Shown here one piece after another: positions 9,125 to 63,930 of a stretch of 64,000 bases of DNA. The stretch spans positions 1 through 64,000 of the forward strand of contig JBEKXF010000010.1 of NCBI GenBank assembly GCA_049512315.1, given 5' to 3'. This stretch comes from Candidatus Aminicenantales bacterium (GTDB taxonomy: Bacteria; Acidobacteriota; Aminicenantia; Aminicenantales; Saccharicenantaceae). Positions within the stretch are counted from its first letter, which is position 1, and every line of letters starts with the position of its first letter. The notes below the pieces were generated by a model. The model had not been told where the DNA came from and did not search any database. It saw only the letters and a list, made by a program, of their open reading frames with translations. Position numbers and translations under genes: made by a program.

Positions 9125-10036
9125 ATGAAGCGCACAAAGAGATTCTTCCTGGCCCTCGCTGCCGCCGCGGCCCTCGCCCTGGCGTCGGCCCAACCCGCCT
9201 TTCCTCTCGAAAGGCCCGCCCCAGGCCAGGTCCTGGAAGGTCTCCACGTGACAAGTCCCATCCTGGGCCGGGACGTCAGCTACGCGGTCTACCTGCCTCC
9301 GGATTACGCGACGTCCACGCGCCGCTACCCCGTCGTCTATCTGCTCCACGGCTACACGGACAACGAGTCGGGCTGGATCCAGTTCGGCGAAATCAACCAG
9401 GCTGCGGACCGGGCCATCGCCGACCGCGAGATCCCGCCGATGATCATCGTCATGCCCGACGGCGGCGTCACCTGGTATGTCAACGATTATCAGAACAGGG
9501 TCCGATTCGAGGACATGTTTGTCCAGGAATTCATCCCCCATATCGACGCCTCCTTCCGGACCCGCCCGGAGCGGGAGTTCCGGGGTGTCGCCGGCCTGTC
9601 GATGGGCGGCTGGGGGACGCTCGTCTATGCCCTATCTCACCCGGAGCTGTTCTCGGCCTGCGCCGCCTTCAGCGCCGCCGTCTGGCCGGACGAGGAGATC
9701 CTGGCGATGAAACAGGACGCGTGGGATAAGGTCGTCGGCCCGGTCCTCGGACCCGGCCTCGCCGGCAAGGCCCGGCTGACGCCTCATTTCCGCAAGTACA
9801 GCCCGCTGGCGCTGGCCGGTGCTCTGCCCGAGGAATCCTTGAAGAAAGTGCGCTATTACATCGACTGCGGCGACAAGGATTTTCTCATTAGGGGCAACTG
9901 TGCTCTTCACATCCTTCTCCTCGACCGCAAGATCCCCCACGAGTTCAGGGTGCGCGACGGCGCCCACACCTGGACCTATTGGCGCACGGGGATTATCGAC
10001 GGTCTGAAGTTCATCGGGGAGAGCTTCCGCAGATAG
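9125..10036 (+). CDS. Secreted alpha/beta-hydrolase esterase (CE1/FrmB-like)
   Basis: Signal peptide; YPVVYLLHG, GLSMGG nucleophile, DCGDKD, GAHTW. Confidence 0.9.
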   Translation: MKRTKRFFLALAAAAALALASAQPAFPLERPAPGQVLEGLHVTSPILGRDVSYAVYLPPDYATSTRRYPVVYLLHGYTDNESGWIQFGEINQAADRAIADREIPPMIIVMPDGGVTWYVNDYQNRVRFEDMFVQEFIPHIDASFRTRPEREFRGVAGLSMGGWGTLVYALSHPELFSACAAFSAAVWPDEEILAMKQDAWDKVVGPVLGPGLAGKARLTPHFRKYSPLALAGALPEESLKKVRYYIDCGDKDFLIRGNCALHILLLDRKIPHEFRVRDGAHTWTYWRTGIIDGLKFIGESFRR

Positions 10037-10144
10037 GACCCTGGAGGGATCGTCGGAGTGCTCAAACGACCCTCCGCCTGATCAACTGGCCTGGAGTGCG
10101 CGTGTCTCAAGAGGCCTAGATCCCGGTTGTGTCAGAAGAATTTC

Positions 10145-10202
10145 TTGACAGCCAACCCTGAATCTACTACATTTTGTGTGGATATTTATGGAGACACACA
10201 AA
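10145..10202 (+). promoter_or_regulatory. sigma70 promoter plus downstream 8-bp inverted repeat operator
   Basis: TTGACA(10145-10150)-17 nt-TACATT(10168-10173); TTTGTGTG(10173-10180)-N14-CACACAAA(10195-10202). Confidence 0.6.
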
Positions 10203-10356
10203 TCTTGGTGGGGTAGTCTGGAATTCTTTCCTGACCGAGGGCCATTTCGTACCCGGAAGCCCCTAATTTCGATCACCGGGGAGAATTCAAGGGATCGGGC
10301 CCACGCCCGACTAAAAAGCTCACGCGACAGATTCTGCCCCGGACAATAAGAGGTCG

Positions 10357-13300
10357 ATGGCACAGCCGGAAACAGGAGCCCAGACGATGGTCGGGAAGCC
10401 CATCGTCCTCATCGTCGATGACGACTTGTCCTACATCGAAAAGCTCCAGCGGGCCCTCCGGGACCAATACGCCGTGCATACCACGACGAGCGGCGTCGAG
10501 GCCATCAAGATCATCAAGGCCCTGCCCGAGGTCCATGTCCTCATCGTCAACGAGGACCTCCCCCGGATGAAGGGGACCGAGCTCCTCCGCTTCCTCCACG
10601 AGATGTTCGACAAATCCGATTCCATCATCAAGATCCTGCTGACGGATTCCGGGTCGAATGGGACGGTCGCCGACCTCGCGAGCTATGGCCGCATCGACTA
10701 TACCTGCGCCAAACCCGCCGACCCGGCCGAGATCCGGCGCAAGGTCGGATTTCTCATCGCCCAGAGGTCCCACGAAAAGCGGACGTCGATGCGGGTGAAC
10801 CTCAACGGCCCTTCGGACATCCGGATCGAGACCGGCGGGCCCGGCGAGGCCAAGGTCATTAATCTCAGCGAAAGCGGAATGTTCCTCCAGACCATGTCCT
10901 TTTTCCCTGAAGGCGCCTCAATTCCGCTGACGATCACCCTTCCCGACGGCCGGCAATACCCCATGAGCGGTCGGATCGTCCGGCAGGATATCGACCAGGG
11001 CGGTGTCGGCGTCGAGTTCCAGACGATCAATGATCAAGGCCGGCGCTCGATCCTCCAGTTCCTGTCCGATTATGTCACGGTCCAGGACCTCGCCGAGCTC
11101 AAGCTCCGCTATCCCTTCCTCAAGACCGACGACATGGTCCTGTTCTCCGACACCTTCAAGATCGAGTCCCTCCTTCGCGAAGCCCTGAGGGGGGGAGTGG
11201 AGATTGCCGTCATCCATTCCGAATCGAGGAATCCCGAGATCCTCGAGTTCTCCGACCTCAAGCCGCCCGCCGTGTGCACTCTCAAGGGGGAAGACCTGAA
11301 CGTCAAGTTCAAGACGTCCAACCTCATCTTTGTTTCCTTCCAGATCGGCTACGCCACCTACAACTTCGAGACCATGGTCTCCCGGATCACGCCTGACGGC
11401 GGGAAGCTCGTCTGCCTTTATCCGAGGGTCATGTTTTACTCGGAGAAGCGGACCGAAAAAAGGATCAGTCCGAACGGGAACCTCCGGGTCGAGATCCCCC
11501 TGCCGCCTCCCTTCAACAGCAGCATCACGGGCCGGATCACCGACATCAGTCCCGGCGGAGTCAGCTTCATCGCCGACTCCCACGCCCAGGTCCTGCTGAA
11601 AGGCACGCCCCTCGAGACCCTGTCCATCATGAACGGCGACCGGCTTCTCTGGAAGGAAAACGGAGAGGTGCGCTACGTGGCCAGGGCCGGAGAGGGGACC
11701 CTGTACGGGATGAAATACGGCATCCAGTTCGGGATCGGCCGGGTGAACATCCAGTCTGTCCAGGCGCCCGAGCTTGATTACGAGCATTCTGATGAAGGTC
11801 CTCCGGGTCCGTCCATGATCTTCCCAAGCACGAGCTTGGGCGGTGAACTCAGTAAGCTCGTCCACATGCCGCCGCAAGTCCTCCGCATCGAGAGCCGGCG
11901 CGGCGAGGAGATCGTCGGCCTTCTGAATTCTTCCCTTCCCCTGGACGAGAAGCCCGTCCCCGTCGTCGTCGTTCCCCCCGCCTTTGGAAAAACCAAGGAA
12001 GTCCTCTTCGGCCTGGCCCTGACTCTCGTCCAGAACTTCCGCGCCCTTGGAAAACCGCTGGCGGTCATCCGCTATGACGGCATCCGCAGAAAGGGCGAGA
12101 GCCATAAGGACCCCGAGGCTTCCGAGCCTCCCTACGAAATGCTGAAGGCCAGCACCAGCCAGGGAGCTGAAGATATTAGAACCGTTCTGGACTGGCTTCA
12201 ACTCAACTCCAAGATCAAGGCGAGCTCGGTCATCCTTGTCACGTTTTCCCTTTCGGCCCTGGAAGCTCGGGTCGTCCTGAGAGATGACGTCTATCGCCGG
12301 CAGATCAATTATTGGATATCCTGCATGGGCTCCCTGGAATTCAGGGACATGATGAACCGGATCAACTGCGGGTTGGATGTCCTCGAACAGTATCAACTCG
12401 GCATCAAACTGGGCATCTATCCCATCCTGGGCAATCTGATCAGCCACGAGTTCTATGCCGCCGATGTCATCGCCAATGCCGTGGGGACCCTGGAGCAGGC
12501 CCGGGAGGACATGCGCCACCTCGATCTCCCGATCACCTGGATCTACGGGCAATACGACCAATGGATCAAATCGGAATTCATCCGCGACGTGATGAGCGTT
12601 CAGGCCAACGCCCTTCGCGAAGTGATTGCCGTCCCTATCGGGCACAACGCCCGGACGTCCCAGGAAGCCCTCCGGTTGTTCGGCACGATCACGTCACTCA
12701 TCCATCGCTCCCTGCACAAGACGATGATCCAGCCGATCCTTCCCTCGAAGAAGGACATGGAAGTCATGCGGCGCTCTGAGAAGGACAGGCTCCCGCCCCG
12801 GAACCTCAAGAACAAGAAAGCCTATTGGCACCATTACCTTGTCGGTGAGAATAACCTCCTCGGCTTCGACATCATGGCCATGTCCGACGATTATCAGCAG
12901 CTGATGGAGGACCAGCTTCAGGCCCTCGAGCTTGAGTCCACCGACCGTCTCCTCGACCTCGGGGGAGGGACCGGAAACTTCGTCGAGCACCTCATCGAGA
13001 GCGGCCGCGACCTGCCCGCCCAGATCACCATCGCCGACCTGATCCCGGACGCTATTAAGCAGGCCCGGGAAAAACTCCTCTCCCGCTACGACATCCTCAG
13101 CGAGCCGGGACGCCTCGACTTCCTGGGCCTGGACCTCGAGATGAGCCGGTTCCTGCCTGTCGGCCGCTTCCTCGAAGGGGAAGTCGGGAGCTTCGAGGAG
13201 ATGGCCGACAAAATCGAGAACTTGACGCTCGACAGCGCCATCAAGATCCAGGCGGCCTATTCCCCCCGGCTCCACAGGATTCTCCGGGGCGAGCCCATCA

Positions 13301-13902
13301 CTCCGTCGGCCGACGACTGGCTGAAGAGGCAGTTCGACCTTCATGAATACCGGACCATCGTCGACTTCAACCAGGCCGCCCGTTATGTCCGCCGGCTGAC
13401 CAATAAGAAGCCCCCGTTCCGCAGGCTGGTCCTGCCCGGATTTCTCGAGGGGAATCTCCATCTCCCTTTCAAGGCGGGCTGGTACAACAAGGTCCTCATG
13501 AGCCTTGTCCTCTCCTACATCTTCGACCCGGCCGAGACCCTCCGCGAGGTCCGACGGATCATCAGGCCGGGGGGCCGGCTCGTTCTGTCGAGCATGCGTC
13601 CGGACACCGACGCCTCGGGGCCCTACACGCGGCTCCTGGAGAAAATCGAAACGATGCCCGAGGAAGCTCTGCCGCCGGACTGGCCCAAGGCCCGGCTTCT
13701 CGATTCTATGCGTTCTTTCCTCAACGACGCTCAGGCCCTTTCAGACTTCGAAGAAGCGGGGACTTTCGATTTCTTCGACCCGGACAAGCTCGACGGCCTG
13801 CTCGAAGAAGCCGGCTGGAAAAGAATCCGGATGATCCCGAGTTTCGGAGATCCCCCCCAAGGTTATATCGTCCTGGCAAAGGCGAGGGAAACCAATGACT
13901 AG
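10357..13902 (+). CDS. Multidomain protein: atypical receiver - PilZ - YcgR-like/PilZ - LuxD-like acyl-thioesterase - SAM methyltransferase
   Basis: IVDDD..IVNEDLP..AKP; RTSMR/NLSESG and RTEKR/DISPGG PilZ motifs; RYDG..GES, TFSLSA, YDQWIK, IGHN; LLDLGGGTGN. Confidence 0.75.
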   Translation: MAQPETGAQTMVGKPIVLIVDDDLSYIEKLQRALRDQYAVHTTTSGVEAIKIIKALPEVHVLIVNEDLPRMKGTELLRFLHEMFDKSDSIIKILLTDSGSNGTVADLASYGRIDYTCAKPADPAEIRRKVGFLIAQRSHEKRTSMRVNLNGPSDIRIETGGPGEAKVINLSESGMFLQTMSFFPEGASIPLTITLPDGRQYPMSGRIVRQDIDQGGVGVEFQTINDQGRRSILQFLSDYVTVQDLAELKLRYPFLKTDDMVLFSDTFKIESLLREALRGGVEIAVIHSESRNPEILEFSDLKPPAVCTLKGEDLNVKFKTSNLIFVSFQIGYATYNFETMVSRITPDGGKLVCLYPRVMFYSEKRTEKRISPNGNLRVEIPLPPPFNSSITGRITDISPGGVSFIADSHAQVLLKGTPLETLSIMNGDRLLWKENGEVRYVARAGEGTLYGMKYGIQFGIGRVNIQSVQAPELDYEHSDEGPPGPSMIFPSTSLGGELSKLVHMPPQVLRIESRRGEEIVGLLNSSLPLDEKPVPVVVVPPAFGKTKEVLFGLALTLVQNFRALGKPLAVIRYDGIRRKGESHKDPEASEPPYEMLKASTSQGAEDIRTVLDWLQLNSKIKASSVILVTFSLSALEARVVLRDDVYRRQINYWISCMGSLEFRDMMNRINCGLDVLEQYQLGIKLGIYPILGNLISHEFYAADVIANAVGTLEQAREDMRHLDLPITWIYGQYDQWIKSEFIRDVMSVQANALREVIAVPIGHNARTSQEALRLFGTITSLIHRSLHKTMIQPILPSKKDMEVMRRSEKDRLPPRNLKNKKAYWHHYLVGENNLLGFDIMAMSDDYQQLMEDQLQALELESTDRLLDLGGGTGNFVEHLIESGRDLPAQITIADLIPDAIKQAREKLLSRYDILSEPGRLDFLGLDLEMSRFLPVGRFLEGEVGSFEEMADKIENLTLDSAIKIQAAYSPRLHRILRGEPITPSADDWLKRQFDLHEYRTIVDFNQAARYVRRLTNKKPPFRRLVLPGFLEGNLHLPFKAGWYNKVLMSLVLSYIFDPAETLREVRRIIRPGGRLVLSSMRPDTDASGPYTRLLEKIETMPEEALPPDWPKARLLDSMRSFLNDAQALSDFEEAGTFDFFDPDKLDGLLEEAGWKRIRMIPSFGDPPQGYIVLAKARETND

Positions 13903-16411
13903 CAAGGATTTCGACTTCGAAGAACGGCTTTATCTGGAAAATAACCTGAGGGGCCGTGTTCGGCTCATCATCATTTCGAGCGCGATTCTTTACCTTTCTT
14001 TCGTAATCCTGGACACGGTCTACGCCTCTCCATTTTTTTCAAGGTTTCTCGTCATCCGCCTGACTGTCCTGGCCGCTCACGCCATTCTCTTTGCCTGGCT
14101 CAGCCGCGCCAAGACAAACCGTAGCTGCGCGAACATCGCCATCGCCTTGGCCCTTTTTGATGTCGGCGGAATCGCCATCATGATCTGGTCGCAGAACAGC
14201 TATGTCCAGGGCCTGTACATCATCGTCATCGGTTTGGTCGTGTCCGTCCCGCTGACATTCCGTGATACTGTCTTCCTCTATGTCATGATCTGGTTGAGCT
14301 ACGTCCTTCCCAGTTTCTTCAATTTAACCAGGGTCGGCTGGCTAAATGTTATTTACAATCTCTTTTTCCTGACGTCCCTTATCCTGATCGGCACCCTGGG
14401 GTCCTACGTCATGGACCGGCTGCGGCGCCGCGAGCTCCGGAGCCGCGCCCAGCTCGAGGAGATGACGGGCAAGCTCCAGGAGTCGAACGCGAAGCTCAAG
14501 ACCCTGGACGAGCTCAAGACGCAGTTCTTCGCCAACGTCAATCACGAGCTCCGGACGCCCCTGACCCTGATGCTCGCGCCGCTCCAGATGATCCTGGATA
14601 ACAAGATGGGCAAAATTTCTCCGGTCTTGAAGGATACGCTCGAGACCATGCAGCGCAACGGCTACAAGCTCCTCAAGCTGATCAATAACCTGCTCGACCT
14701 GACCAAGCTCGAGGAAGGGAAGATGAGGCTCAAGATCAAGGCGGTGAACTTCATCGAATTCACGAGCGCCCTCCTCTCGTCCGTCAAGCCCCTGGCCGAC
14801 CAGAAGCAGATCAAGCTTTTTTTCCAGCACCCTCCGCAAGCCATCGACCTGACCATCGACCCCGACCAGTTCGAGAAGGTCACCCTCAACCTCCTCTCCA
14901 ACGCCCTCAAGTTTACGCCGAAGGGCGGGAGGATTACCATCTACATTGAGGACAAGGAAAAAACGGTCGTCATGGCGGTCGTGGATACGGGGATCGGCAT
15001 CCCGGCCAACATGCTCGAAACCATCTTCGACCGTTTCTCACAGGTCGACGGGTCCATGTCCCGGCCCCAGGAAGGGACGGGGATCGGGCTGTCCCTGGCC
15101 CGGGAGATCGTCGCCCTCCATCAGGGGACCATCCGGGCCGAGAGCGAGCTCGGGCAGGGCTCCCGGTTCATCGTGGAAATTCTCAAGGGCGAGGACCACT
15201 ATCCGGCGGACGTCCTCGACCGGCGACAGGATGAACAGCCCGTCGGCCTCAAAAGGAGAGTGACAGACGTCCAGGAGCCGCGGGTCCAGGACATCGTCAC
15301 CGACTTCCACCGGCTCCAGCTCGTCGACCTCGAGCGGGTGGAAATCGAGGCCGCCGGCAGCGGCACGAAAACCCACGACGCCCTGATCCTCGTCATCGAC
15401 GACAACCCCGAGGTCCTCAAGCTGATGAAAATGCTCCTGAGCGACGAATTCGACCTGGAGATGACGACCTCGGCCGAGAAGGGGCTGGCCCTGCTCAAAG
15501 AAAAGAGCCCCGATCTCATCCTTTGCGACGTCATGATGCCCGGAATGGACGGCCATGCGTTCTCCCGGGCCGTCAAGGCCGACGAGGCCCTGAAACACGT
15601 CCCGATCATCCTTGTGACGGCACGGACGGGGGCCGAGATGCTCGCCCAGGGCATCCAGGCCGGCGCCGACGATTACATCTCGAAGCCCTTCGATTCCGTC
15701 GAGCTCAAGGCCCGGATCCGCTCCCTCCTCAGGTTCCGTGAGGTCGAATCGGAATTGGCTCTGGCCAACCGGAACCTCAGGATGAGGACCTCGGACCTCG
15801 TCGACCAGCAGCGCTCCCTGTTTCTGTCGACGGTCAAGTCCCTGGTTTCCGCCATCGACGCCAAGGACGAATACACCCGGCATCATTCCACCCGCGTCAC
15901 CGAGTTCACCCTGAAGATCGCTTCAAAGATGAACTTCAGCGAGAAGGAAACCAGCGATCTCGAGCTGGCCGCTCTTCTCCATGATGTCGGCAAGATCGCC
16001 GTCCCGGAAAACATCCTCAACAAGCCGGGAAAGCTGACCGATGCGGAGTTCGCCCTGATCAAGGAGCACCCGGCCCGGGGGGAGAGCATTCTCAGGCCGG
16101 TCATCGAGCTCAAGAATATCGCCCATGTCGTCCGCGCCCACCATGAGCATTACGACGGCACCGGGTACCCCGACAGACTGAAAGGCCGGGAGATCCCCCT
16201 CGGGGCCCGGATCATGGCCGTCGCCGACGCCTACGACTCCATCACCTCGGAAAGGCCCTACCGGAAGGCCGCCTCCCACCACTACGCGGTGAAGGAGATC
16301 ATCCGTTGTTCCGGGGCGCAGTTCGACCCCGAGGTCGTGGAGCATTTTCTCGAGGTCAGCGGCAGCCTCGTCCAGGAGCAGGGCCAGGGGTCCACGCCGA
16401 CGGAAGCCTAA
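13895..16411 (+). CDS. Membrane hybrid histidine kinase with receiver and HD-GYP c-di-GMP phosphodiesterase domains
   Basis: About 6 N-terminal TM segments; NHELRTPL, NLLSNALKF, DTGIGI, GTGIGL; ILCDVMMP; HDVGK..HHEHYDGTGYP; 8-bp overlap with upstream gene. Confidence 0.92.
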   Translation: MTSKDFDFEERLYLENNLRGRVRLIIISSAILYLSFVILDTVYASPFFSRFLVIRLTVLAAHAILFAWLSRAKTNRSCANIAIALALFDVGGIAIMIWSQNSYVQGLYIIVIGLVVSVPLTFRDTVFLYVMIWLSYVLPSFFNLTRVGWLNVIYNLFFLTSLILIGTLGSYVMDRLRRRELRSRAQLEEMTGKLQESNAKLKTLDELKTQFFANVNHELRTPLTLMLAPLQMILDNKMGKISPVLKDTLETMQRNGYKLLKLINNLLDLTKLEEGKMRLKIKAVNFIEFTSALLSSVKPLADQKQIKLFFQHPPQAIDLTIDPDQFEKVTLNLLSNALKFTPKGGRITIYIEDKEKTVVMAVVDTGIGIPANMLETIFDRFSQVDGSMSRPQEGTGIGLSLAREIVALHQGTIRAESELGQGSRFIVEILKGEDHYPADVLDRRQDEQPVGLKRRVTDVQEPRVQDIVTDFHRLQLVDLERVEIEAAGSGTKTHDALILVIDDNPEVLKLMKMLLSDEFDLEMTTSAEKGLALLKEKSPDLILCDVMMPGMDGHAFSRAVKADEALKHVPIILVTARTGAEMLAQGIQAGADDYISKPFDSVELKARIRSLLRFREVESELALANRNLRMRTSDLVDQQRSLFLSTVKSLVSAIDAKDEYTRHHSTRVTEFTLKIASKMNFSEKETSDLELAALLHDVGKIAVPENILNKPGKLTDAEFALIKEHPARGESILRPVIELKNIAHVVRAHHEHYDGTGYPDRLKGREIPLGARIMAVADAYDSITSERPYRKAASHHYAVKEIIRCSGAQFDPEVVEHFLEVSGSLVQEQGQGSTPTEA

Positions 16412-16420
16412 GCGCGAAGG

Positions 16421-17779
16421 TCAGCCGATCTTTTTCGCTTCCTGCTTGAAGTCCTGTTGCCAGAGGATAAAGCCCGTTACGTTGCCTTTCTGGTCGCTCA
16501 GGAACTGGATCCGGACATAAGGGTCGACGGAGAAAAAGAAGGTCTGGCTTTCGACGAAAAACCTGGTCGGTGCCTGCCCTGTCGGCCGGATGACCAGATA
16601 ATAATCCTCGTAGCTGACGTCCAGAATATAATCCGGAGAGATCTCGTAGTGGCCGACGTACTGCCGGTAGATCGAAGGGTCGAGCCGGTAGAGGGGCCTC
16701 TCCCGGGGCCTGAAATCCGGCCACTCGTAGGCTGTTGAAACACTCCGGAGAATCTCCTCGGTGATCAGAAAGCCGTTGTCGCTGTTCGTCATGACCACGG
16801 CGCCCTGCCCCTTGTAGGGATAAACGTCGAGCGAACAGGTGAATCCTCGGGTCCGGCCCTGGAGATGGAAACGGATGTCCGTCCCGGCCCCCTCGATCTC
16901 GAATCCGAGCCCCCTGTTCCCAGCCTGGGGCGTGAGCATGGCCCGGGCCTGGCCGGCGGTCAGGACCTTCCCTCCCTTGCCCATCGCCGTCCGCAGGATG
17001 TCAGCCGCGAAAGAGAGAAGGTCGGACGGGCTCGTCCAGAGGCCGCTCGCGGCTGCGGCTGGAGAGTCGGTCCATTTCCCCTCGATTGGTCGGCCATCGC
17101 GGCCGTGGCCGGAGGCCGCGTTGATCTTCATGGCCTCGGGCAACGGCGCCGTGAATGTGCTGTTCTTCATTCCGAGCGGGCCGAGAACAGTTTCGTTCAT
17201 GAGCGAAGGGAAAGAGGAAGACGTCACGCTTTCAAGAAGCTTCGGGAGCAGGTCAAAACCCGAGGCACGGGTCAGGATCCCGCGCAGCGTGGTCCCATTC
17301 TTCCCGGCGAGATCCGTCCGGGTCAGGTCTGAGCCGTGAAGCCGCGCGCTGACGTCCGCGTCCAAGTCGAGCCGGCCCTTGTCCACCAGCTGAAGAGCTG
17401 CCGCGGCCGCGACCGGCTGGCTGAGCTCGCCGGCCTGGAAGATCGTATCCGCCGTCACGGGCTCCCGGGAGTGCGAGTCGCGGACACCGTAACCCCCAGC
17501 CCATTCGAGGGCGTTCCTGTCCATGACGGCGATGCCGAGCCCGGGGACCTTATAGAATTGCATCCGGGCGTCCAGGGAGAGCTTTTCAGGCCTCTGGCCC
17601 TTGAGGTAGATCGCCCGGAGCAGGCCGTTCTCGACCTTCCGGATCCTGCTCTTGGTCAGGGACTCCTGACGGGTCTCGCAGCCCACGGCCAGAAAAACCA
17701 GGGCCGATATTCCAAGAATGGCACAGCCATGGATACTTAAGGAGAGGCCATGCAGTCGGGAGGGAAGCCGCGTCGTCAT
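16421..17779 (-). CDS. Beta-lactamase-family serine hydrolase-like lipoprotein with degenerate active site and DUF3471-like tail
   Basis: LAVGC lipobox, VPGLGIAV, AASGLWTSPSDL; SxxK position reads ELSQ. Confidence 0.75.
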   Translation of the reverse strand: MTTRLPSRLHGLSLSIHGCAILGISALVFLAVGCETRQESLTKSRIRKVENGLLRAIYLKGQRPEKLSLDARMQFYKVPGLGIAVMDRNALEWAGGYGVRDSHSREPVTADTIFQAGELSQPVAAAAALQLVDKGRLDLDADVSARLHGSDLTRTDLAGKNGTTLRGILTRASGFDLLPKLLESVTSSSFPSLMNETVLGPLGMKNSTFTAPLPEAMKINAASGHGRDGRPIEGKWTDSPAAAASGLWTSPSDLLSFAADILRTAMGKGGKVLTAGQARAMLTPQAGNRGLGFEIEGAGTDIRFHLQGRTRGFTCSLDVYPYKGQGAVVMTNSDNGFLITEEILRSVSTAYEWPDFRPRERPLYRLDPSIYRQYVGHYEISPDYILDVSYEDYYLVIRPTGQAPTRFFVESQTFFFSVDPYVRIQFLSDQKGNVTGFILWQQDFKQEAKKIG

Positions 17780-22713: not shown

Positions 22714-24327
22714 CTATTGGCAGGACATGCGGTAGAGACTGTTGCCCTTGTTGTCGTAGATGATGAAGGCGGGAAGGTCCCGGACCCGGATCCTGCGCAC
22801 GGCTTCCATCCCCAGGTCCGCGAAGTCCACGACTTCGGACTCCAGGATGTGCTCCTTGGCCATGAGCGCGGCCGCCCCGCCGATCGTCCCCAGGTAAAAG
22901 CCGTTGGAGAGGCGGCAGGCTTCGATGACGGCCTCGGCCCGGTTGCCCTTGGCCAGCGTCACCCGCGAAGCGCCGGCCTTCATGAAATCGGCGATATATC
23001 CGTCCATGCGCTGGGCGGTCGTCGGCCCGAAACTCCCGGACGGCAGGCCCCGGGGCGTCTTGGCCGGGCCGGCATAATACACCGGATGGGCCCGGAAGTA
23101 GGCCGGGAGAGGACGGCCCTCGTCGAGCATCTTCTTGAGCCGGGCGTGGGCGATGTCCCTGGCCACGATGAGCGTTCCGTTGAGGACGAGCCGGGTCCCG
23201 ACGGAGTATTGAGAGAGATCCGCGATGATCGCCTCGATGGGCCGGTCCAGGTCGATCGGGATGCCGGGACCGAAATCGAGCTTTTCGAGCCTGGCCAGGA
23301 AGCGGCCGGGGTTCCGGTCGAGCTTTTCCAGGAAGACTCCGGCCCGGGTGATCTTGCCCTTGATATTGCGGTCGGCGTTGCAGCTCACGCCGATGCCGAC
23401 CGGGAGCGAGCCCGCGTGTCGCGGCGCCCGGATGACGCGGGCCTCGAGGGCGAAATACTTGCCCGTGAACTGGGCGCCCAACCCGTTGGCCCGGGCCAAT
23501 TCCAGAACTCTCGCCTCCCAATCGAGATCGCGATAGGCAGAGCCCTTTCCCGTCGGCACGGTCGTCAGGTCGTCCAAGTATCCCGCTGAGGCCAGCTTCA
23601 CCGTTTTCAAGGTCATCTCGGGCGACGTCCCGCCGATGACGACGGCCAACCGGTAGGGCGGGCAGGCGGCGACGCCGATGGCCTTGATCTTTTCCCCGAG
23701 GAAGCCGGCCAGGCTCTGCTCGCTCTGCAGGAGAGACTTGTTTTCCTGGTAGAGGCTGGTCTTGTTGGAGGACCCGCCGCCCTTGGCCACGAACAGGAAC
23801 CGGTATTCGCTTCCCGGACGAGAGTAAATATCGACTTGCGGAGGGAGGTTCGTCCCGGTATTCTCCTCGTCGAGCATGCCGAGCGGCGCCACCTGGGAAT
23901 ACCGGAGGTTGTTCCTGGCATAGGCCTTGAAGACGCCGCGGGCGAGATAGCGGGTGTCGTCGGCACCGGTCAGGACGGCCTCGCCCTTGTAAGCCACGAC
24001 CGTGGCCGTCCCCGTGTCCTGGCAGGTCGGGAGCTCCCCCTCCGCGGAGATGGCCGCGTTGCGAAGCAGGGCGCCGGCCACGAAACGGTCGTTCTCGGAG
24101 GCCGCAGGATCGCCGAGGATCGCGGCCAGGTTCTCGAGATGGCGCGTCCTGAAGAAGAAGGCGACGTCCGTGAACGCCTCCTCGGCCAGGAGCGTCAGGG
24201 CCGCCGGCTCCACCCGGAGGAAGGTCCGGCCGCCGCTTTTCATCGTCCGGACGCCGTCCCTGATCTTCCGGTATTTGACGGTTTCCCTTTTCATCGGGAA
24301 CAGGGGGTCTTGGGAAAAGCGGGGCAT
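22714..24327 (-). CDS. Class I Fe-S fumarate hydratase (probable mesaconase)
   Basis: PTCQDTG, KGGGSSN, ACPPY, GPTTAQRMD, TIGGAAA; lies in the methylaspartate cluster. Confidence 0.9.
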   Translation of the reverse strand: MPRFSQDPLFPMKRETVKYRKIRDGVRTMKSGGRTFLRVEPAALTLLAEEAFTDVAFFFRTRHLENLAAILGDPAASENDRFVAGALLRNAAISAEGELPTCQDTGTATVVAYKGEAVLTGADDTRYLARGVFKAYARNNLRYSQVAPLGMLDEENTGTNLPPQVDIYSRPGSEYRFLFVAKGGGSSNKTSLYQENKSLLQSEQSLAGFLGEKIKAIGVAACPPYRLAVVIGGTSPEMTLKTVKLASAGYLDDLTTVPTGKGSAYRDLDWEARVLELARANGLGAQFTGKYFALEARVIRAPRHAGSLPVGIGVSCNADRNIKGKITRAGVFLEKLDRNPGRFLARLEKLDFGPGIPIDLDRPIEAIIADLSQYSVGTRLVLNGTLIVARDIAHARLKKMLDEGRPLPAYFRAHPVYYAGPAKTPRGLPSGSFGPTTAQRMDGYIADFMKAGASRVTLAKGNRAEAVIEACRLSNGFYLGTIGGAAALMAKEHILESEVVDFADLGMEAVRRIRVRDLPAFIIYDNKGNSLYRMSCQ

Positions 24328-24338
24328 GGCGGCTCCCT

Positions 24339-25280
24339 TCAGTCCTGGATTTCCATGGATTCGTTGATGTCTTCGAAGCCCGCGATCTCCTTGTAGCCGA
24401 CCATGCCGACGAGCATGTACTCGTTGGTGAGATAGTTGAACTTGAACTCCTTGAGGAGGCGGAAGGCCTCGATCTGGCCCGTGCTGTGGACGTGGGTCCG
24501 CGGGCCCGTGCAGAAGATTTCCGTGTCGCCGACCCGGATCGCGTCTTCCCCACCCGGCGAGATGGGAAGATTCTGGGAGATGACGTCCTTGACCTTGGCC
24601 TCGAGCTCGTGCAGGTCGATGTCGGGCCGCTCGGGAAAGTTGATGACGAAGCCGTGCCGGACGTCGGAGTGGAGGACCTGGCTCTTGTAGTGGTAGTCGC
24701 GCTCGAGGATGGAGACCGTGATGTCCTCGGCCGAGTGGGCCATGAGGCGGTACTTGATGGTCTTGTCCACGATCGCCTTGATGTTCTGGGGGAAGGGCCC
24801 GAAGATCGAGGGCCGGGCCACGAGGATCTCCTCGCCCAGCCCGATGAGGACCTGGGCGTTCATCCCCAGGGCCTCGTAGATCAGGTCGAAATGCTCGACG
24901 ACGACCCGCCGGTTGGCGAGGACGGCGTTCCGGATAGCCTCCTTGATCTTGTATTTCTGCTTGAAGGCGAGCTCGTAGCGGATATCGACATGAAAAGTGT
25001 GTCCGGAAAAAAAATCTTCCGAAGAGAATCCGTAGAGGGGGGTGGGCTTGACGTTTACGCCTTCGTCGTCGTTGGTCAGCTCGAGCCCCGGAAAGAGGCC
25101 CCGGATGAGGGTCGACTTGCCCGACCCTTCCGAGCCGATGATCCCGATCAGGAAGTCCGTCGGCGTCAGGTAGCGCCGAGAGATCTCGTTCGCGACCATG
25201 TAGAGCCGCTGCCTCCCCCGCGGGGCGTAATAGGCGGCGTAGATCAGCGTGTCGTTCCTGGCCGTGGCGAGGTTGTACAT
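24339..25280 (-). CDS. P-loop domain fused to an AlaRS/ThrRS second-additional (editing-like) domain
   Basis: Walker A GSEGSGKST; MAHSAED and FCTGPRTHVHSTGQI. Confidence 0.75.
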   Translation of the reverse strand: MYNLATARNDTLIYAAYYAPRGRQRLYMVANEISRRYLTPTDFLIGIIGSEGSGKSTLIRGLFPGLELTNDDEGVNVKPTPLYGFSSEDFFSGHTFHVDIRYELAFKQKYKIKEAIRNAVLANRRVVVEHFDLIYEALGMNAQVLIGLGEEILVARPSIFGPFPQNIKAIVDKTIKYRLMAHSAEDITVSILERDYHYKSQVLHSDVRHGFVINFPERPDIDLHELEAKVKDVISQNLPISPGGEDAIRVGDTEIFCTGPRTHVHSTGQIEAFRLLKEFKFNYLTNEYMLVGMVGYKEIAGFEDINESMEIQD

Positions 25281-25294
25281 GGCGGCCTCCTCGG

Positions 25295-25606
25295 CTAGAA
25301 GGTGATGTCGAAAAGGGGCGCGTGCTGCTGGGCCCCGTAGATATCGGTCTCGCCGGGCGCGCCCGAGGGGATCCGCCGCCGCAGCGTGACCTTGACCGCG
25401 TGGCTCGGCTCGAAGTAGACGACCCTGAGGATATCGCTCTTGGGGACGCGGTAGAGGCGGGAGATGAGCGCCGCATTGATGATGCGCCTCTTCTTGAAAA
25501 GCTCGTAGAACTCCCGGTCCTTGAACATGATGTCCAGGGTCAGCTCGTACGGCCCCGAATTCTTGGAGCGGATGACCTTGGCGGCTTCGAGGATGTTTCT
25601 TTTCAT
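25295..25606 (-). CDS. DUF4387 family small protein (AtuA partner)
   Basis: IRSKNSGPYELTLDI, DIYGAQQHAPL. Confidence 0.8.
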   Translation of the reverse strand: MKRNILEAAKVIRSKNSGPYELTLDIMFKDREFYELFKKRRIINAALISRLYRVPKSDILRVVYFEPSHAVKVTLRRRIPSGAPGETDIYGAQQHAPLFDITF

Positions 25607-54602: not shown

Positions 54603-55874
54603 ATGGAAAACCCGAAGACGAGGACATTGACGCTCGGCGGCTGGACCGGCCCCCGCATCCTGAGCTTCATCTCCGGCGCCGGCATGATCGCAGCCTCGGC
54701 CCTGACCATCCGCCACTTTTTCCTGGCCAATTACCCGGCCACGATCTTCACCGGCTCCTTCTGCGACATCAGCGCCTTCTTCAACTGCGACAGCTCGGCC
54801 TTCTCGCCCATTTCCCAGGTCCTGGGCGTCCCGCTCGGCTATTTCGGACTGTTCCTGGGGGCCCTGGTCACACTCGGCGCCGTCATCCCCTCCGAGACCT
54901 TCGAGCGGACGAATAGATTCCTGGCGCTCCTCAACGTTCTGGGCGTCATCGGCCTCTTCCTTTATTCGGTGCTCGTCCTCGGCAGCCTCTGCCTTCTCTG
55001 CTCCGGCTTTTACTTTTTCTCGATCCTGAGCTTCGTCCTCTTCTGGGTCTACGGGACCGGCCGCGAAGAGCGGAACCTCGCCGCCCGCTGGCTCCGGCCG
55101 TCCCTCAAGCTTCTCGTCGTCTTCGCCTTCATCGCCGCGGCCGGGGCCTACGGTTTCGTCCAGTACCACGACGCCAAGAAAGAAGCCCAGATGGGGACGG
55201 TCTCGAATATCGTCAGGCAGTTCTATGAGCTTCCCAAGGTCGCCTCGCCGAGCTTCCTCTCGCCATACTGGTCGGTGAAGTCCACGGAAAGGTTCGAGGA
55301 CGCGGCCATCCAGATCGTCGAATACGCCGACTTCCTCTGCCCCGACTGCCTCTACCTTGCCCAGCAGATGGACAAACTGAAGAAGGAGTTTGTCGGCAAG
55401 ATCAACGTCGCCTTCCAGTTCTTCCCGCTCGAGGGGCTGTGCAACACGGTCGTCCCCGAGAAGGCCAACCTCCACCCCGGCGCCTGCGAGATGACCTATA
55501 TCGCCGCCGGCAACCTGGCCCGCTTCCCCGAGATCCACGACGAGATCTGGGCCAATTTCCGGTCGGCCCGGAACCCGGAATGGCGCCGGGCCCTGGCGCA
55601 GAAATACGGCACGGAGCAGGCCATCGGTGACCTCAACGTCCGGGACCTCGTCGAGCGGATCATCAACACCGGGGCCGAATACGATAAGACCTCCGACAAG
55701 TATTCGCACGGCATCCGGTCGACGCCGACCGTCATCATCAACAACCGGATGATTATCGGCACGCTTCCCTACCAGCACTTGAGGGCCATCTTCCAGGCGT
55801 TGGTCGACGAGCGTGAGGGCGGAGAGAAAAAATTTATCGAGAACTGGGTGCCGCCGGCCCGCCGGAAAAAATAA
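54603..55874 (+). CDS. VKOR - DsbA/thioredoxin fusion
   Basis: CDISAFFNC, GVP, CLLC (VKOR); ADFLCPDC, FFPL, STPT (DsbA-like). Confidence 0.88.
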   Translation: MENPKTRTLTLGGWTGPRILSFISGAGMIAASALTIRHFFLANYPATIFTGSFCDISAFFNCDSSAFSPISQVLGVPLGYFGLFLGALVTLGAVIPSETFERTNRFLALLNVLGVIGLFLYSVLVLGSLCLLCSGFYFFSILSFVLFWVYGTGREERNLAARWLRPSLKLLVVFAFIAAAGAYGFVQYHDAKKEAQMGTVSNIVRQFYELPKVASPSFLSPYWSVKSTERFEDAAIQIVEYADFLCPDCLYLAQQMDKLKKEFVGKINVAFQFFPLEGLCNTVVPEKANLHPGACEMTYIAAGNLARFPEIHDEIWANFRSARNPEWRRALAQKYGTEQAIGDLNVRDLVERIINTGAEYDKTSDKYSHGIRSTPTVIINNRMIIGTLPYQHLRAIFQALVDEREGGEKKFIENWVPPARRKK

Positions 55875-58621: not shown

Positions 58622-60013
58622 TCACCTCCCGCGGATGTTCGCCCTGCCGAAAAAACTCATTCGCGGGGACGGGGGCTGCGCCTCCGGTCCGGCGAGCGCG
58701 GCCGGCGGCATCCGGATGTCCTTGATCCCCTGCCTGAACGCCAGGTTGACGGCGAAGACCGCCGCCGTGGCTTTGGGCGAGGCCCGGAGCGAAGCCCGCG
58801 CGACGCGCTGAACGACCCGCGGGTAGGAGAAGAATTTCTTCCTGACCCAAGCGCATCTTTCGATGAGCTCCTGCCGGGACATGTTTTTCGGCTCGAAACA
58901 GGCGTTGTCTGTCATATACCTGCTCCAGTCCCGTTCAACGAGCCGGCCCTCGCTCTCGAGCCTCGCATGGAGCGGTGTCCCGGGATACGGGACGAGGATG
59001 TTGATCTGGGCCGTATCGATCCGGCTCTCCAGGGCGAACTCGAGGGTCCGCGGGAAGACCGTCTCGTCGTCGTTGTCGAAGCCGAAAATGAAGGCCCCGA
59101 TGACGCAGATCCCCCGAGCGTGGAGCTTCCGGACGGTCTCTTTGTATACGGCCGCCCGGTTCTCGCCCCGGGCGAGCTTGGTGAGCCGCGCCTGGGCGAC
59201 GACGGACTCGAAGCCGACGAACACTCCGGCGCAGCCGCTCCTCTCCATCAGGTCCAGCATCTCGCCGTCCTTCGAGATATTCCACGAGGCGTTGCCGACC
59301 CATGCCTTCCGGAGCGGGATGAGGCCCCGGAAAAGCTCCTTGAAATAATCCGTCTCCTGGGCGACGTTGTCGTCGTTGAGAACGAAGATATCCCCATCGA
59401 GCGCCCGGACCTCCTCGATGACCTCCTCGACGGGCCGGCACCTCGTCCGCGCCCCGAAAAGGGCCGTGATAGAGCAGAATTCGCAGCTGAAGGGGCAGCC
59501 CCGCGTCGCCTGGACGGTGTTGATCGTGATGTAGTCCTCTTTCCTGAGCAGGTCCCTCCGGGGGACCGGCAGGCCGGCCAGGTCTGAGCTATTCGACGAC
59601 CGGTAGACCTCCCGGAGCGCGCCCGTCTCGAAGTCCCTGAGGAGCCCAGGCCAGGTGTCCTCGGCCTCGCCGACGACGATGGCGTCCGCCTCGCGCGCCG
59701 CCTCCTCCGGGCAGGCCGTCACGTGCATCCCGCCGAGAACAACGGGGACCCCCCTTTCTCGATATTCCCGGGCGATCTCGTAACCCCTTTTGGCGTTAGG
59801 GGTCAAAACCGAGATCCCCACGAGGTCGGCGGGGGGGTCGTAGGCGATTGCTTCACGCTCATCGTCAACGATGGAGATTTCGGCTTCCGGAGGGCAGAGG
59901 GCCGCGACCATCGTCAACCCCATGCCAGGGTAGCGTTGGACTTTGGGTTGATTCCTCCGGAAGGACGTCGACCCCGACCGGCGCGCCGACGGATAGATCA
60001 ATTGAATTCTCAT
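58622..60013 (-). CDS. B12-binding domain radical SAM protein
   Basis: VVLGGMHVT, VGEAE, TRGCPFSCEFC, GFES, PYPGT. Confidence 0.9.
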   Translation of the reverse strand: MRIQLIYPSARRSGSTSFRRNQPKVQRYPGMGLTMVAALCPPEAEISIVDDEREAIAYDPPADLVGISVLTPNAKRGYEIAREYRERGVPVVLGGMHVTACPEEAAREADAIVVGEAEDTWPGLLRDFETGALREVYRSSNSSDLAGLPVPRRDLLRKEDYITINTVQATRGCPFSCEFCSITALFGARTRCRPVEEVIEEVRALDGDIFVLNDDNVAQETDYFKELFRGLIPLRKAWVGNASWNISKDGEMLDLMERSGCAGVFVGFESVVAQARLTKLARGENRAAVYKETVRKLHARGICVIGAFIFGFDNDDETVFPRTLEFALESRIDTAQINILVPYPGTPLHARLESEGRLVERDWSRYMTDNACFEPKNMSRQELIERCAWVRKKFFSYPRVVQRVARASLRASPKATAAVFAVNLAFRQGIKDIRMPPAALAGPEAQPPSPRMSFFGRANIRGR

Positions 60014-60201
60014 CTCGGCTCTCCCCCAATCCGACCATATTATGGTGACCCCGGGGAGCCGAGTTGTCAAGAAGATGTCAAGATTTCGTAAAAAGCCCTT
60101 TACACCACGGTTTTCCTGGAACTCGATTGCGGCTACTGGGGCCCGGACTCCGAAGCTAAGATGCGGGAAAAAATGAAATAAAAAGGGGCAGGTGTCCCTC
60201 T

Positions 60202-62309: not shown

Positions 62310-62496
62310 CCCGGCTCATTTTACTCCATCGTCCATGAAATAAATAGGTCCGGGACCGCCACAATTACCCATCCGACCCCATGGATCCCCATGAAAAACG
62401 CCTTGCGGTTTTTACGGCACCCGACTATAACTTGAGGCATGGCGCGCGCCGCTAGGGACAGGGGGGAACGGCTTTAATTTAGCCTGTGAGGTGTTC

Positions 62497-63930
62497 ATGA
62501 AAAAAGCTGCACGGACGCAGAGAATCTTGTTCGTTTCCGCCCTGCTGGTTCTTTTCGCGGCGTCGCTCGCCGCCGACGAAACGACCGACAAGGTCGACAA
62601 ACTCTTCGCCACGTGGGACAAGACGACGTCGCCCGGGGCGACCCTGGCGGTCATCAGCGACGGCCGGATCATCTACAAGCGGGGCTACGGGATGGCCAAG
62701 CTCGAGGACGGGATCGTCATGACCCCGGACAAGATCTTCGATATCGGCTCGGTCTCCAAGCAGTTCACAGCAACGTGTGTTGTAATGCTAGTGCGCGATG
62801 GGAAGATCTCGCTTGACGACAACGTCCGGAAATTCATCCCCGAGCTCCCCGACTATGGAACGCCGATCACCGTCCGCCATCTCCTCCACCACACGAGCGG
62901 CTTCCGCGACTACAACGCTCTGCTCGAGCTGGCCGGGTTCCGGGACGATTCCGACTGCCCGACCGTCGAGGAGGCCCTGGACGCCATCTGCCGCCAGAAA
63001 AAGCTCAATTATCCCCCCGGCCAGGAATATTCCTACACGAACACTGGCTACTTCCTGCTGAGCCAGATCGTCGAGCGGGTGAGCGGGAAATCGCTCAACG
63101 CCTTCGCCCAAGAGCGCATTTTCAAGCCCCTCGGCATGGAGCATACCCTCTACCAGGACAACCACACCCAGGTCATTAAGGACCGGGCGACCGGTTACGA
63201 TCCCGACGACCAGGGCTTCAAGATCGACATGAGCAATTGGGACGAGACGGGCGATGGGAACGTCTACACGTCGGTCGAGGACCTCTATCTCTGGGACCAG
63301 GCCTTCTACAACAACAAGCTGGGCAAGGGTGTCATGGACATGCTCCACACGACGGGCACGCTCAATAACGGGAAGCCGATCGATTACGCCTTCGGCCTAG
63401 TCGTGACAGAATACAAGGGCCTCAAGGTCGTCGAGCACGGCGGCGCCTGGGCGGGGTTCCGGGCGGGGATCGTCCGCTTCCCCGATGAAAAATTCTCGGT
63501 CATCTGCCTGGCCAATCTGGGCACGGTGGACCCGTCGGGGCTGTGCTTCAAGGTGGCCGACATCTATCTCGCCGGAAAGCTCAAGGAGCCGGAGAAGAAG
63601 GAAGAGAAAAAAGCCGAGGCCGCCGCCGTCCCGGAAAAGGACCTGGCACGGCTCCGCCCTCTCACGCCCGCCATGCTCAACGATTACGCAGGCACATACG
63701 TCAGCCCCGAACTCCTCGACGCGCGCTACCAGATCAGGGTCGACAAGGACAAGCTCGTCCTGAAGACGAGGACGATCCCGCGAGCCGAAATGAAAGCCAT
63801 GGCGCCGGATAAGTTCATCGAGCCCGAAAGCGGGGCCAACATCGAGTTCGTCCGCGGCAAGGGCGGGAAAGTCACGGGCTTCAAGCTCGCCGTCGGCCGG
63901 GCCGCCGGCATCGAATTCGTCAAGAGATAA
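62497..63930 (+). CDS. Secreted beta-lactamase-family serine hydrolase
   Basis: Signal peptide; IGSVSKQF (SxxK), YTN, HGG motifs intact. Confidence 0.9.
   Translation: MKKAARTQRILFVSALLVLFAASLAADETTDKVDKLFATWDKTTSPGATLAVISDGRIIYKRGYGMAKLEDGIVMTPDKIFDIGSVSKQFTATCVVMLVRDGKISLDDNVRKFIPELPDYGTPITVRHLLHHTSGFRDYNALLELAGFRDDSDCPTVEEALDAICRQKKLNYPPGQEYSYTNTGYFLLSQIVERVSGKSLNAFAQERIFKPLGMEHTLYQDNHTQVIKDRATGYDPDDQGFKIDMSNWDETGDGNVYTSVEDLYLWDQAFYNNKLGKGVMDMLHTTGTLNNGKPIDYAFGLVVTEYKGLKVVEHGGAWAGFRAGIVRFPDEKFSVICLANLGTVDPSGLCFKVADIYLAGKLKEPEKKEEKKAEAAAVPEKDLARLRPLTPAMLNDYAGTYVSPELLDARYQIRVDKDKLVLKTRTIPRAEMKAMAPDKFIEPESGANIEFVRGKGGKVTGFKLAVGRAAGIEFVKR

Follow-up and report, generated by a model that had tools for sequence, protein, structure and literature searches.

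What is a bacterium doing with two overlapping genes that join cyclic di-GMP (c-di-GMP) signaling domains to an acyl hydrolase and a methyltransferase? This question is raised by a locus of Candidatus Aminicenantales bacterium (GenBank assembly GCA_049512315.1), located in a stretch of 64,000 nucleotides (nt) of contig JBEKXF010000010.1, hereafter called the window. Gene 1 encodes a receiver, two PilZ domains, a LuxD-like alpha/beta hydrolase, and an S-adenosylmethionine (SAM) methyltransferase, and gene 2 encodes a membrane input, a histidine kinase core, a second receiver, and an HD-GYP domain. A preliminary description of the locus had proposed that gene 1 makes a fatty acid methyl ester under c-di-GMP control and that gene 2 senses this product and degrades c-di-GMP. 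Our analysis indicates that the pair is a real unit, strictly conserved together. We consider it fairly probable that it forms a self-contained c-di-GMP module, in which the sensor lowers the messenger and the enzyme reads it, with acyl transfer and methylation as the output.

The unity of the pair was evaluated by its conservation. Among 35 other genomes with an ortholog of gene 1, 32 orthologous loci were fetched, leaving out three genomes with a short contig or a partial match and the second copy in one genome (G186). Gene 2 lies directly after gene 1, usually overlapping it, in 31/32 loci; at the 32nd, the contig breaks off 273 nt past gene 1 but still covers residues 1 to 92 of gene 2, which brings the count to 32/32. 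Gene 2 was also used to search five genomes of the same family that have no gene 1, and no full-length match was obtained in 5/5, the best matches having 31 to 45% identity over single domains only. The outcome that had been named beforehand as refuting, a pair not conserved together, was thus not obtained: the genes are linked in 32/32 loci and jointly absent in 5/5 genomes.

Gene 1 was found in 38 of 201 genomes of the class, all in one order and with a patchy occurrence among genera (g1, 3/3; g2, 16/16; g3, 0/15), and a family profile found the gene 1 family in 10 of 401 genomes of the phylum, all in the same order; both genome sets are samples, in which a gene not found is no proof of absence. 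Close homologs of gene 1 are mostly labeled Candidatus Aminicenantes or Aminicenantales, and the best 80 matches (57 loci) of a profile search with a 9-sequence alignment were all close Aminicenantes orthologs. Among the clusters of 10 distant representatives, one member is labeled Spirochaetia. Most occurrences of the family are in uncultured lineages, Aminicenantes among them. As separate observations, G186 carries its two gene 1 copies on different contigs (C2 and C12), and four same-family genomes without gene 1 (G055, G061, G081, and G181) each gave 8 to 11 matches to gene 2 at E<=1e-30, mainly to the HD-GYP domain; these four genomes appear unusually rich in HD-GYP proteins.

Table 1. 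Coordinates in the window of the two genes, their domains, and the candidate promoter (ORF, open reading frame; aa, amino acids)
Feature	Coordinates	Strand	Description	Basis
Gene 1	10357..13902	+	1181 aa: receiver, PilZ, linker, PilZ, LuxD-like hydrolase, SAM methyltransferase	ORF and Pfam
Gene 1 receiver	10405..10746	+	residues 17-130	Pfam Response_reg, E 7.5e-11
PilZ domain 1	10774..11064	+	residues 140-236; R142xxxR146, N169-L-S-E-S-G174	
Linker	11065..11439	+	conserved 125-residue region, residues 237-361	conservation in alignment
PilZ domain 2	11440..11736	+	about residues 362-460; R365xxxR369, D396-I-S-P-G-G401	
LuxD-like alpha/beta hydrolase	11863..12723	+	about residues 503-789; triad Ser631, Asp734, His763; conserved PPAFGKxKE	
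Class I SAM methyltransferase	12811..13893	+	about residues 819-1179; motif I LDLGGGTG; helical insert of ~90-130 residues	
Gene 2	13895..16411	+	838 aa: six-transmembrane input, HisKA, HATPase, receiver, HD-GYP	ORF and Pfam
Membrane input	13895..14419	+	residues 1-175; six hydrophobic segments, no periplasmic domain	hydropathy
Histidine kinase core	14516..15181	+	HisKA 208-275 with H217, HATPase_c 322-429	Pfam
Gene 2 receiver	15386..15721	+	residues 498-609; Asp545	Pfam Response_reg
HD-GYP domain	15842..16336	+	residues 650-814; H696-D697, H749-H-E..D-G.G-Y-P759	HD_5, E 1.7e-44
Sigma-70-like promoter match	10145..10173	+	TTGACA-17-TACATT	consensus match only, 10/12 positions

As seen in Table 1, the two ORFs are confirmed, with an overlap of 8 nt between the gene 2 start and the gene 1 end, and Pfam searches reproduced the domain architecture that had earlier been described for both genes. 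None of the NCBIfam equivalog models reaches its cut-off for either protein. A hydropathy scan found no transmembrane segments in gene 1, whose product is soluble and whose full-length orthologs span 50 to 92% identity.

The two PilZ domains of gene 1 bear on whether it can read c-di-GMP. The Pfam PilZ model (PF07238) matched gene 1 in two stretches, the best being 140-236 (E 1e-18; 68 bits versus a cut-off of 22.5). Residues R142/R146, N169/S171/G174, R365/R369, and D396/S398/G401 are each retained in 118 to 120 of 120 orthologs; hence, the RxxxR and (D/N)xSxxG motifs, already reported as intact, proved near-invariant. Both domains are canonical, and c-di-GMP binding is predicted from these motifs. 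The conserved linker that joins them gave no Pfam match up to E 10.

The receiver at the start of gene 1 is present as had been proposed; however, a replacement at its phospho-acceptor position had gone unnoticed. In a BLASTP alignment with the receiver of gene 2, Asn65 falls opposite the Asp; at this position, 102 of 120 orthologs have Asn, 9 have Ser, and 7 have Asp. The acidic pocket (D21-D23), T96, and K119 are kept. The phospho-acceptor Asp is present in the more distant receiver-bearing relatives P0127 and P0128 (39 to 40% identity), and therefore a phosphorylatable receiver seems to have decayed to an Asp-less form in the lineage of gene 1. In its present form, the domain probably acts without phosphorylation, for example, via docking or dimerizing. 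These features also bear on a reading in which the PilZ domains do not bind c-di-GMP and serve as interaction modules only, the two genes being an ordinary kinase/receiver-protein pair. Gene 1 does start with a receiver, and P0127 and P0128 keep the Asp, which makes it probable that the two genes were originally linked by phosphotransfer from gene 2 in that branch. Nevertheless, we regard this reading as very unlikely: both PilZ domains keep both motifs with little or no variation across the 120 orthologs, the receiver of gene 1 has Asn65, and the enzymes of sister clades, described below, have no receiver yet keep PilZ together with HD-GYP or GGDEF neighbors.

In the hydrolase domain of gene 1, the Pfam model Acyl_transf_2/LuxD (PF02273) matched residues 542-748 with 28.4 bits (cut-off, 20.3) and also matched 5 of 45 sampled relatives at E<=1e-5. 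The sole match of this domain by sequence in the PDB was 1THT, the LuxD myristoyl-acyl carrier protein (ACP) thioesterase of Vibrio harveyi (E 0.0016, 18% identity). In this alignment, S631 corresponds to Ser114 and D734 to Asp211, and the nucleophile motif reads F-S-L-S-A against A-S-L-S-A in LuxD; H763 is invariant, although its pairing with the LuxD His was not seen residue by residue. An AlphaFold model of the domain, built on 95 sequences, had a pLDDT (predicted local distance difference test) of 95.9. In a fold search independent of Foldseek, covering 48,161 chains, 1THT ranked first (Z 30.0; root-mean-square deviation, 2.7; 273/293 residues), followed by a runner-up with a Z of 25.8. 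Ser631, Asp734, and His763 are retained in 120/120 orthologs, and in 48 diverse family members the triad Asp and His are invariant and the Ser is at least 90% conserved. The hydrolase is thus LuxD-like by sequence and by fold, in agreement with the earlier assignment.

The methyltransferase domain was matched by several Pfam class I models over residues 847-1155, split by the insert, and in sets of 48, 85, and 95 family sequences the motif I core, G-x-G-T-G, shows little or no variation. Its model (pLDDT 94.4) adopts the class I fold. A PDB search by sequence gave only motif-level matches, the best being LahSB (2e-4), and no subfamily is assignable. The fatty acid methyl ester named as the product in the preliminary description found no backing, as the domain matches only generic small-molecule methyltransferases; a methyl ester as the product of gene 1 is only a guess.

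The fusion of both catalytic domains in one chain might also suggest a methyl-ester switch, in which the methyltransferase masks a carboxyl group and the hydrolase unmasks the same group, with c-di-GMP setting the balance, following the logic of BioC/BioH or CheR/CheB. An alpha/beta hydrolase and a carboxyl-type methyltransferase in a single polypeptide would fit this scheme, as would the weak NCBIfam similarity to BioC, which covers motif I only (E 6e-6, 26 bits versus a cut-off of 185), and the carboxylesterases that rank right after LuxD in the fold search (Z 25-26). However, all esterases rank 4 Z units below LuxD, an acyl-ACP thioesterase/transferase that is also the only PDB match at the sequence level, and the ligase and ACP of the sister operons make thioester rather than methyl-ester substrates. 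We therefore consider such a switch rather improbable.

The wider family and its operons are the most informative evidence obtained. A search with the hydrolase-methyltransferase half of gene 1 recovered 323 representative clusters at E<=1e-30 and 882 at the looser threshold of E<=1e-3. Among 45 sampled members, a PilZ domain is present in 32, a receiver in 3, and the methyltransferase in all 45, and therefore the PilZ-enzyme fusion is old and the receiver a local addition. A sister clade, ~30 to 35% identical to gene 1, comprises two genomes of the same order (G026 and G043) and 61 metagenome loci. Its operon runs in the order PilZ-hydrolase-methyltransferase enzyme, truncated FadD-like ligase, ACP of 90 aa, often a B12 radical-SAM gene, and a transmembrane histidine kinase-receiver-HD-GYP gene. 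Taking as denominator the loci with enough downstream DNA, the ligase is directly downstream of the enzyme in 45/48 loci, the radical-SAM gene is downstream in 24/35 (plus 2 upstream), and the kinase-receiver-HD-GYP gene is present in 24/27; the ACP gene (PF00550, E 5e-11) was found in 38 loci. The three loci without these genes form a third clade (L164, L165, and L168), with a phosphopantetheinyl transferase (PPTase) gene directly downstream and two GGDEF cyclases with cyclic nucleotide monophosphate-binding domains upstream. At one sister locus (L064:5887-9211, in G043), the enzyme is split into two overlapping ORFs, a PilZ-hydrolase of 662 aa and a methyltransferase of 461 aa, and therefore the two catalytic halves can exist as separate proteins.

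Closer relatives likewise join the pair to c-di-GMP turnover. A GGDEF domain gene lies just past gene 2 in 14/32 orthologous loci. At L039:12073-14145, from a relative of genus g2 (G115), the gene 2 ortholog shares the 4 nt at its stop with a gene of the architecture 7TM(HisKA_7TM)-PAS-GAF-GGDEF, which gives a three-gene operon of effector, phosphodiesterase, and cyclase. The window genome was found to have no ortholog of this cyclase; it carries 7 GGDEF genes elsewhere and therefore can make c-di-GMP. Overall, every clade seen joins the enzyme with a c-di-GMP-making or -breaking enzyme, and two clades add carrier-protein machinery. These associations support a carrier-bound acyl group as the substrate and c-di-GMP as the regulatory input. 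The acyl chemistry of the preliminary description is thereby backed by the ligase, ACP, or PPTase genes of the relatives' operons, and its c-di-GMP theme by HD-GYP or GGDEF neighbors in every clade seen. The window genome also holds four B12 radical-SAM paralogs, 37 to 41% identical to the sister enzyme. One of them, in the window (58622-60070, minus strand; ~40% identical), was considered as a member of the system and was not counted because it stands alone, with no ligase or ACP nearby.

The same operons leave some room for a substrate other than a fatty acyl group, such as another carrier-bound or esterified compound (an aromatic, amino acid, polysaccharide, or protein acyl group) used in a c-di-GMP-controlled modification of the matrix or envelope. 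Matrix production is classically under c-di-GMP control. The ligase family activates many acids, the sister ligase also matching MenE, DHB-AMP ligase, and amino-acid adenylation models, and feruloyl esterases and polyethylene terephthalate (PET) hydrolases are among the fold neighbors of the hydrolase. However, the best family of the sister ligase, a truncated FadD-like adenylating enzyme, is long-chain fatty-acid-CoA ligase (E 1.7e-54), the best match of the hydrolase is a myristoyl-ACP thioesterase, and no glycosyltransferase or exopolysaccharide genes flank the pair within the window. A non-fatty-acyl substrate therefore seems unlikely to us.

Next, we asked what gene 2 may sense. Its catalytic residues are well conserved: in 30 orthologs, H217 and D545 are each retained in 30/30, H696-D697 in 29/30, and the HHExxDGxGYP residues in 26 to 29 of 30. 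The ortholog at L035 (in G168) matches in two pieces (1-444 and 538-834), which suggests a deletion near the start of the receiver. The hydropathy scan placed six hydrophobic segments within residues 24-173, separated by very short loops. This region gave no Pfam match up to E 10; a language-model feature search ranked a MASE8 cluster first for it (0.96; 194 of 256 features), which serves as a lead only.

The conservation of gene 2 is uneven along its length. Over the 32 loci, the median identity to the window was 48% for the transmembrane input, 78% for the cytoplasmic part of gene 2, and 72% for the catalytic half of gene 1. The divergence of the transmembrane input was uncorrelated with that of the enzyme (Spearman rho -0.08, n=29, with L035, L049, and L057 dropped as their gene 2 is incomplete or split); against the three other parts, rho ranged from -0.05 to -0.26, and among those three it reached 0.81 to 0.90, values that are descriptive only, as related loci are not independent. 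Identity in the transmembrane part was only 46% at loci of the same genus and 74% at one locus of another genus. Moreover, sister-clade sensors, 57 to 58% identical in their cytoplasmic part, gave no detectable match to it.

These data bear directly on the possibility of a closed autoinducer loop. In such a loop, gene 1 would make a diffusible fatty acid methyl ester, and gene 2 would sense this ester with its membrane domain and lower c-di-GMP, which would feed back on gene 1. Quorum sensing of this kind would need no transcription factor. Precedents for the signal-loop logic are the Rpf and Phc systems. Here, a synthase-like enzyme is always encoded together with a membrane-embedded sensor without a periplasmic domain, the acyl chemistry is plausible, and a thioesterase plus a methyltransferase would be the minimal set for a methyl ester. 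Nevertheless, the transmembrane input is the least conserved part, and its divergence does not track that of the enzyme; its identity is lower at loci of the same genus than at one locus of another genus, and no match to it was detected in the sister sensors. Furthermore, there is no exporter gene beside the pair, and nothing identifies the product. The divergence of the input argues against a simple conserved ligand-receptor pair, so that the closed-loop idea is weakened and the earlier claim that gene 2 senses the product of gene 1 is not upheld; we hold the loop to be unlikely. It should be considered that diversifying signal-receptor pairs would give a like pattern in the transmembrane part.

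In its broadest form, the same idea would treat the pair, along with the sister operons and the ligase, carrier protein, and B12 radical-SAM enzyme that these encode themselves, as a new class of circuit for cell-cell signaling or membrane homeostasis. Its c-di-GMP-gated synthase would make a methylated lipid that is sensed by the membrane domain of the partner, and the loop would close entirely via the second messenger without a transcription factor. By analogy with peptide pheromone specificity groups, the fast-evolving input would then reflect signal diversification. We give this proposal little credence.

The transcription unit was also analyzed. A gap of 320 nt separates gene 1 from an upstream esterase-family gene (9125-10036), and the candidate promoter lies inside this gap. 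The preliminary description had placed both genes behind one promoter; this promoter is a consensus match only (10/12 positions), and a consensus scan of 9900-16700 found 4 sigma-70-like sites versus 1.0 expected. The next gene downstream, of the beta-lactamase family, lies on the minus strand with its end 10 nt past that of gene 2, and because this neighbor is convergent, the unit consists of two genes in the window genome. The upstream esterase gene and a tetratricopeptide repeat (TPR) gene were considered as further members; they were treated as synteny because they recur only in closer relatives (the esterase in 8/32 loci). The other neighbors are of a housekeeping type (cytochrome bd oxidase, cation efflux protein, DUF1015, lactate permease, and fumarase), and luxC, luxE, and luciferase genes were not found next to the pair within the window. 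In metatranscriptomes, 6 to 7% of the words of the stretch occur in three runs of one study. The contigs compared, from a strain ~93% identical to it, leave parts of the stretch uncovered; two of them (12871-14315 and 13195-14401) span the gene junction, which does not prove one transcript, and such libraries may contain DNA.

Elsewhere in the window, the convergent neighbor of gene 2 (16421-17779, minus strand) has a paralog, also a beta-lactamase-family gene with DUF3471, at 62491-63930 (plus strand). An ORF of 920 aa at 22714-25476 (minus strand) matches Fumerase and Fumerase_C only from residue 431 on; its first 430 residues have no Pfam match, so that either the ORF was called too long or its N terminus carries an unusual extension. 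At 54603-55874 (plus strand), one ORF fuses VKOR to a DsbA/thioredoxin-like domain.

The domains, motifs, folds, and gene linkage described above, together with the operons of the relatives, are observations; that gene 1 binds c-di-GMP, in which direction it is regulated, and what its substrate and product are is inferred. In the c-di-GMP module that we favor, a membrane cue would induce autophosphorylation of gene 2 at His217 and transfer of the phosphoryl group to its own receiver at Asp545. The phosphorylated receiver would then switch the fused HD-GYP phosphodiesterase and change the c-di-GMP level; as stated in an HD-GYP census, phosphodiesterases with a receiver (REC) fused to HD-GYP depend on receiver phosphorylation (10.1101/2021.11.05.467447). 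The two PilZ domains of gene 1 would read this level and, in either an activating or an inhibiting sense, gate the hydrolase and the methyltransferase. The LuxD-like domain, through Ser631-Asp734-His763, would take an acyl group off a thioester, most likely that of an acyl carrier protein. Because the window carries no private ligase or ACP, the acyl donor is presumably a housekeeping acyl-ACP, as for LuxD. The SAM methyltransferase may then methylate the acyl compound or its acceptor. The output would be a methylated fatty-acid-type product, and we lean toward a role in the lipid or envelope chemistry of the cell itself over a diffusible signal.

Several points weigh against this module. Beyond domains, motifs, folds, and linkage, the whole mechanism is a prediction at every step. 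Foldseek and VIA searches with the methyltransferase returned generic small-molecule class I methyltransferases only, and the top fold match (Z 20.4) covers 200/382 residues, leaving the helical insert unmatched. PilZ was undetected at E<=1e-5 in 13/45 sampled family members. The NCBIfam LuxD equivalog (NF052253) scored 24.6 bits versus a cut-off of 420, and because of this score the hydrolase is LuxD-like but no LuxD ortholog. A search of the window genome for the sister-clade ligase gave only 24 to 33% matches to long acyl-CoA ligases and no ortholog, and the window itself has no ACP, PPTase, or GGDEF match. Finally, the RNA evidence is weak, the junction-spanning contigs being a weak hint of co-transcription.

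If the module operates as proposed, c-di-GMP would directly control, at the post-translational level, the chemistry of lipids or acyl carriers through a PilZ-gated acyl-thioesterase/methyltransferase, and this would concern a large family (323 clusters at E<=1e-30) whose members nearly always come with a c-di-GMP-degrading or -making enzyme of their own. The compactness of two genes makes the unit accessible to heterologous expression, and the product can be approached through the five-gene sister operons. The pair points to an unstudied link between c-di-GMP and lipid-type chemistry.

How does this pair compare with known systems? The preliminary description knew of no described system with this architecture, and none was found in the literature searched, subscription journals being largely outside its reach; the architecture is also unmentioned in the accessible parts of a PilZ census (10.1101/814665) and of the HD-GYP census (10.1101/2021.11.05.467447).

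Most of the effector enzymes known for c-di-GMP serve in the synthesis or export of polysaccharides. Like the cellulose synthase BcsA and Alg44, gene 1 carries canonical PilZ in one chain with catalytic domains, so that post-translational gating by c-di-GMP would be expected. Unlike them, its output is a LuxD-like acyl hydrolase plus a methyltransferase, with no glycosyltransferase; it has two PilZ domains and a receiver, it is soluble, and a dedicated phosphodiesterase is encoded alongside. The region of ~125 residues that precedes PilZ domain 2 recalls the YcgR-like receptors, in which a divergent PilZ-like domain (PilZN/xPilZ) stands ahead of PilZ, according to the PilZ census (10.1101/814665). 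However, the region in gene 1 has no Pfam match, and gene 1 is an enzyme, not a flagellar brake.

The best match of the gene 1 hydrolase in both sequence and structure is LuxD (1THT), which serves the lux fatty acid reductase system as its myristoyl-ACP thioesterase/acyltransferase. LuxE accompanies LuxD, and an acyl-adenylating enzyme likewise follows the hydrolase gene in the sister operons. In contrast to LuxD, the hydrolase is fused to PilZ and a methyltransferase, and the two proteins are 18% identical.

The analogies drawn at first to the Rpf and Phc systems amount to functional resemblance only, and no RpfF-type (crotonase-family) domain is present in gene 1 or the flanking genes. As in Xanthomonas, where RpfC is a hybrid kinase, RpfG a REC-HD-GYP protein, and RpfF the synthase, a membrane hybrid kinase leads through a receiver to HD-GYP, beside a fatty-acid-type enzyme. 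The differences are that gene 2 unites kinase, receiver, and HD-GYP in one polypeptide and that gene 1, instead of a crotonase-type RpfF, carries PilZ, which would place it downstream of c-di-GMP. In Ralstonia Phc (PhcB and PhcS), a SAM methyltransferase gene adjoins a sensor kinase gene, as here, and a methylated fatty-acid product is conceivable by analogy; this resemblance is one of analogy only. To our knowledge, the Phc system has no PilZ, LuxD-like, or HD-GYP part. Overall, the signaling parts of the pair, PilZ gating and the kinase-REC-HD-GYP chain, are known from other systems, and here they are wired to an undescribed family of output enzymes.

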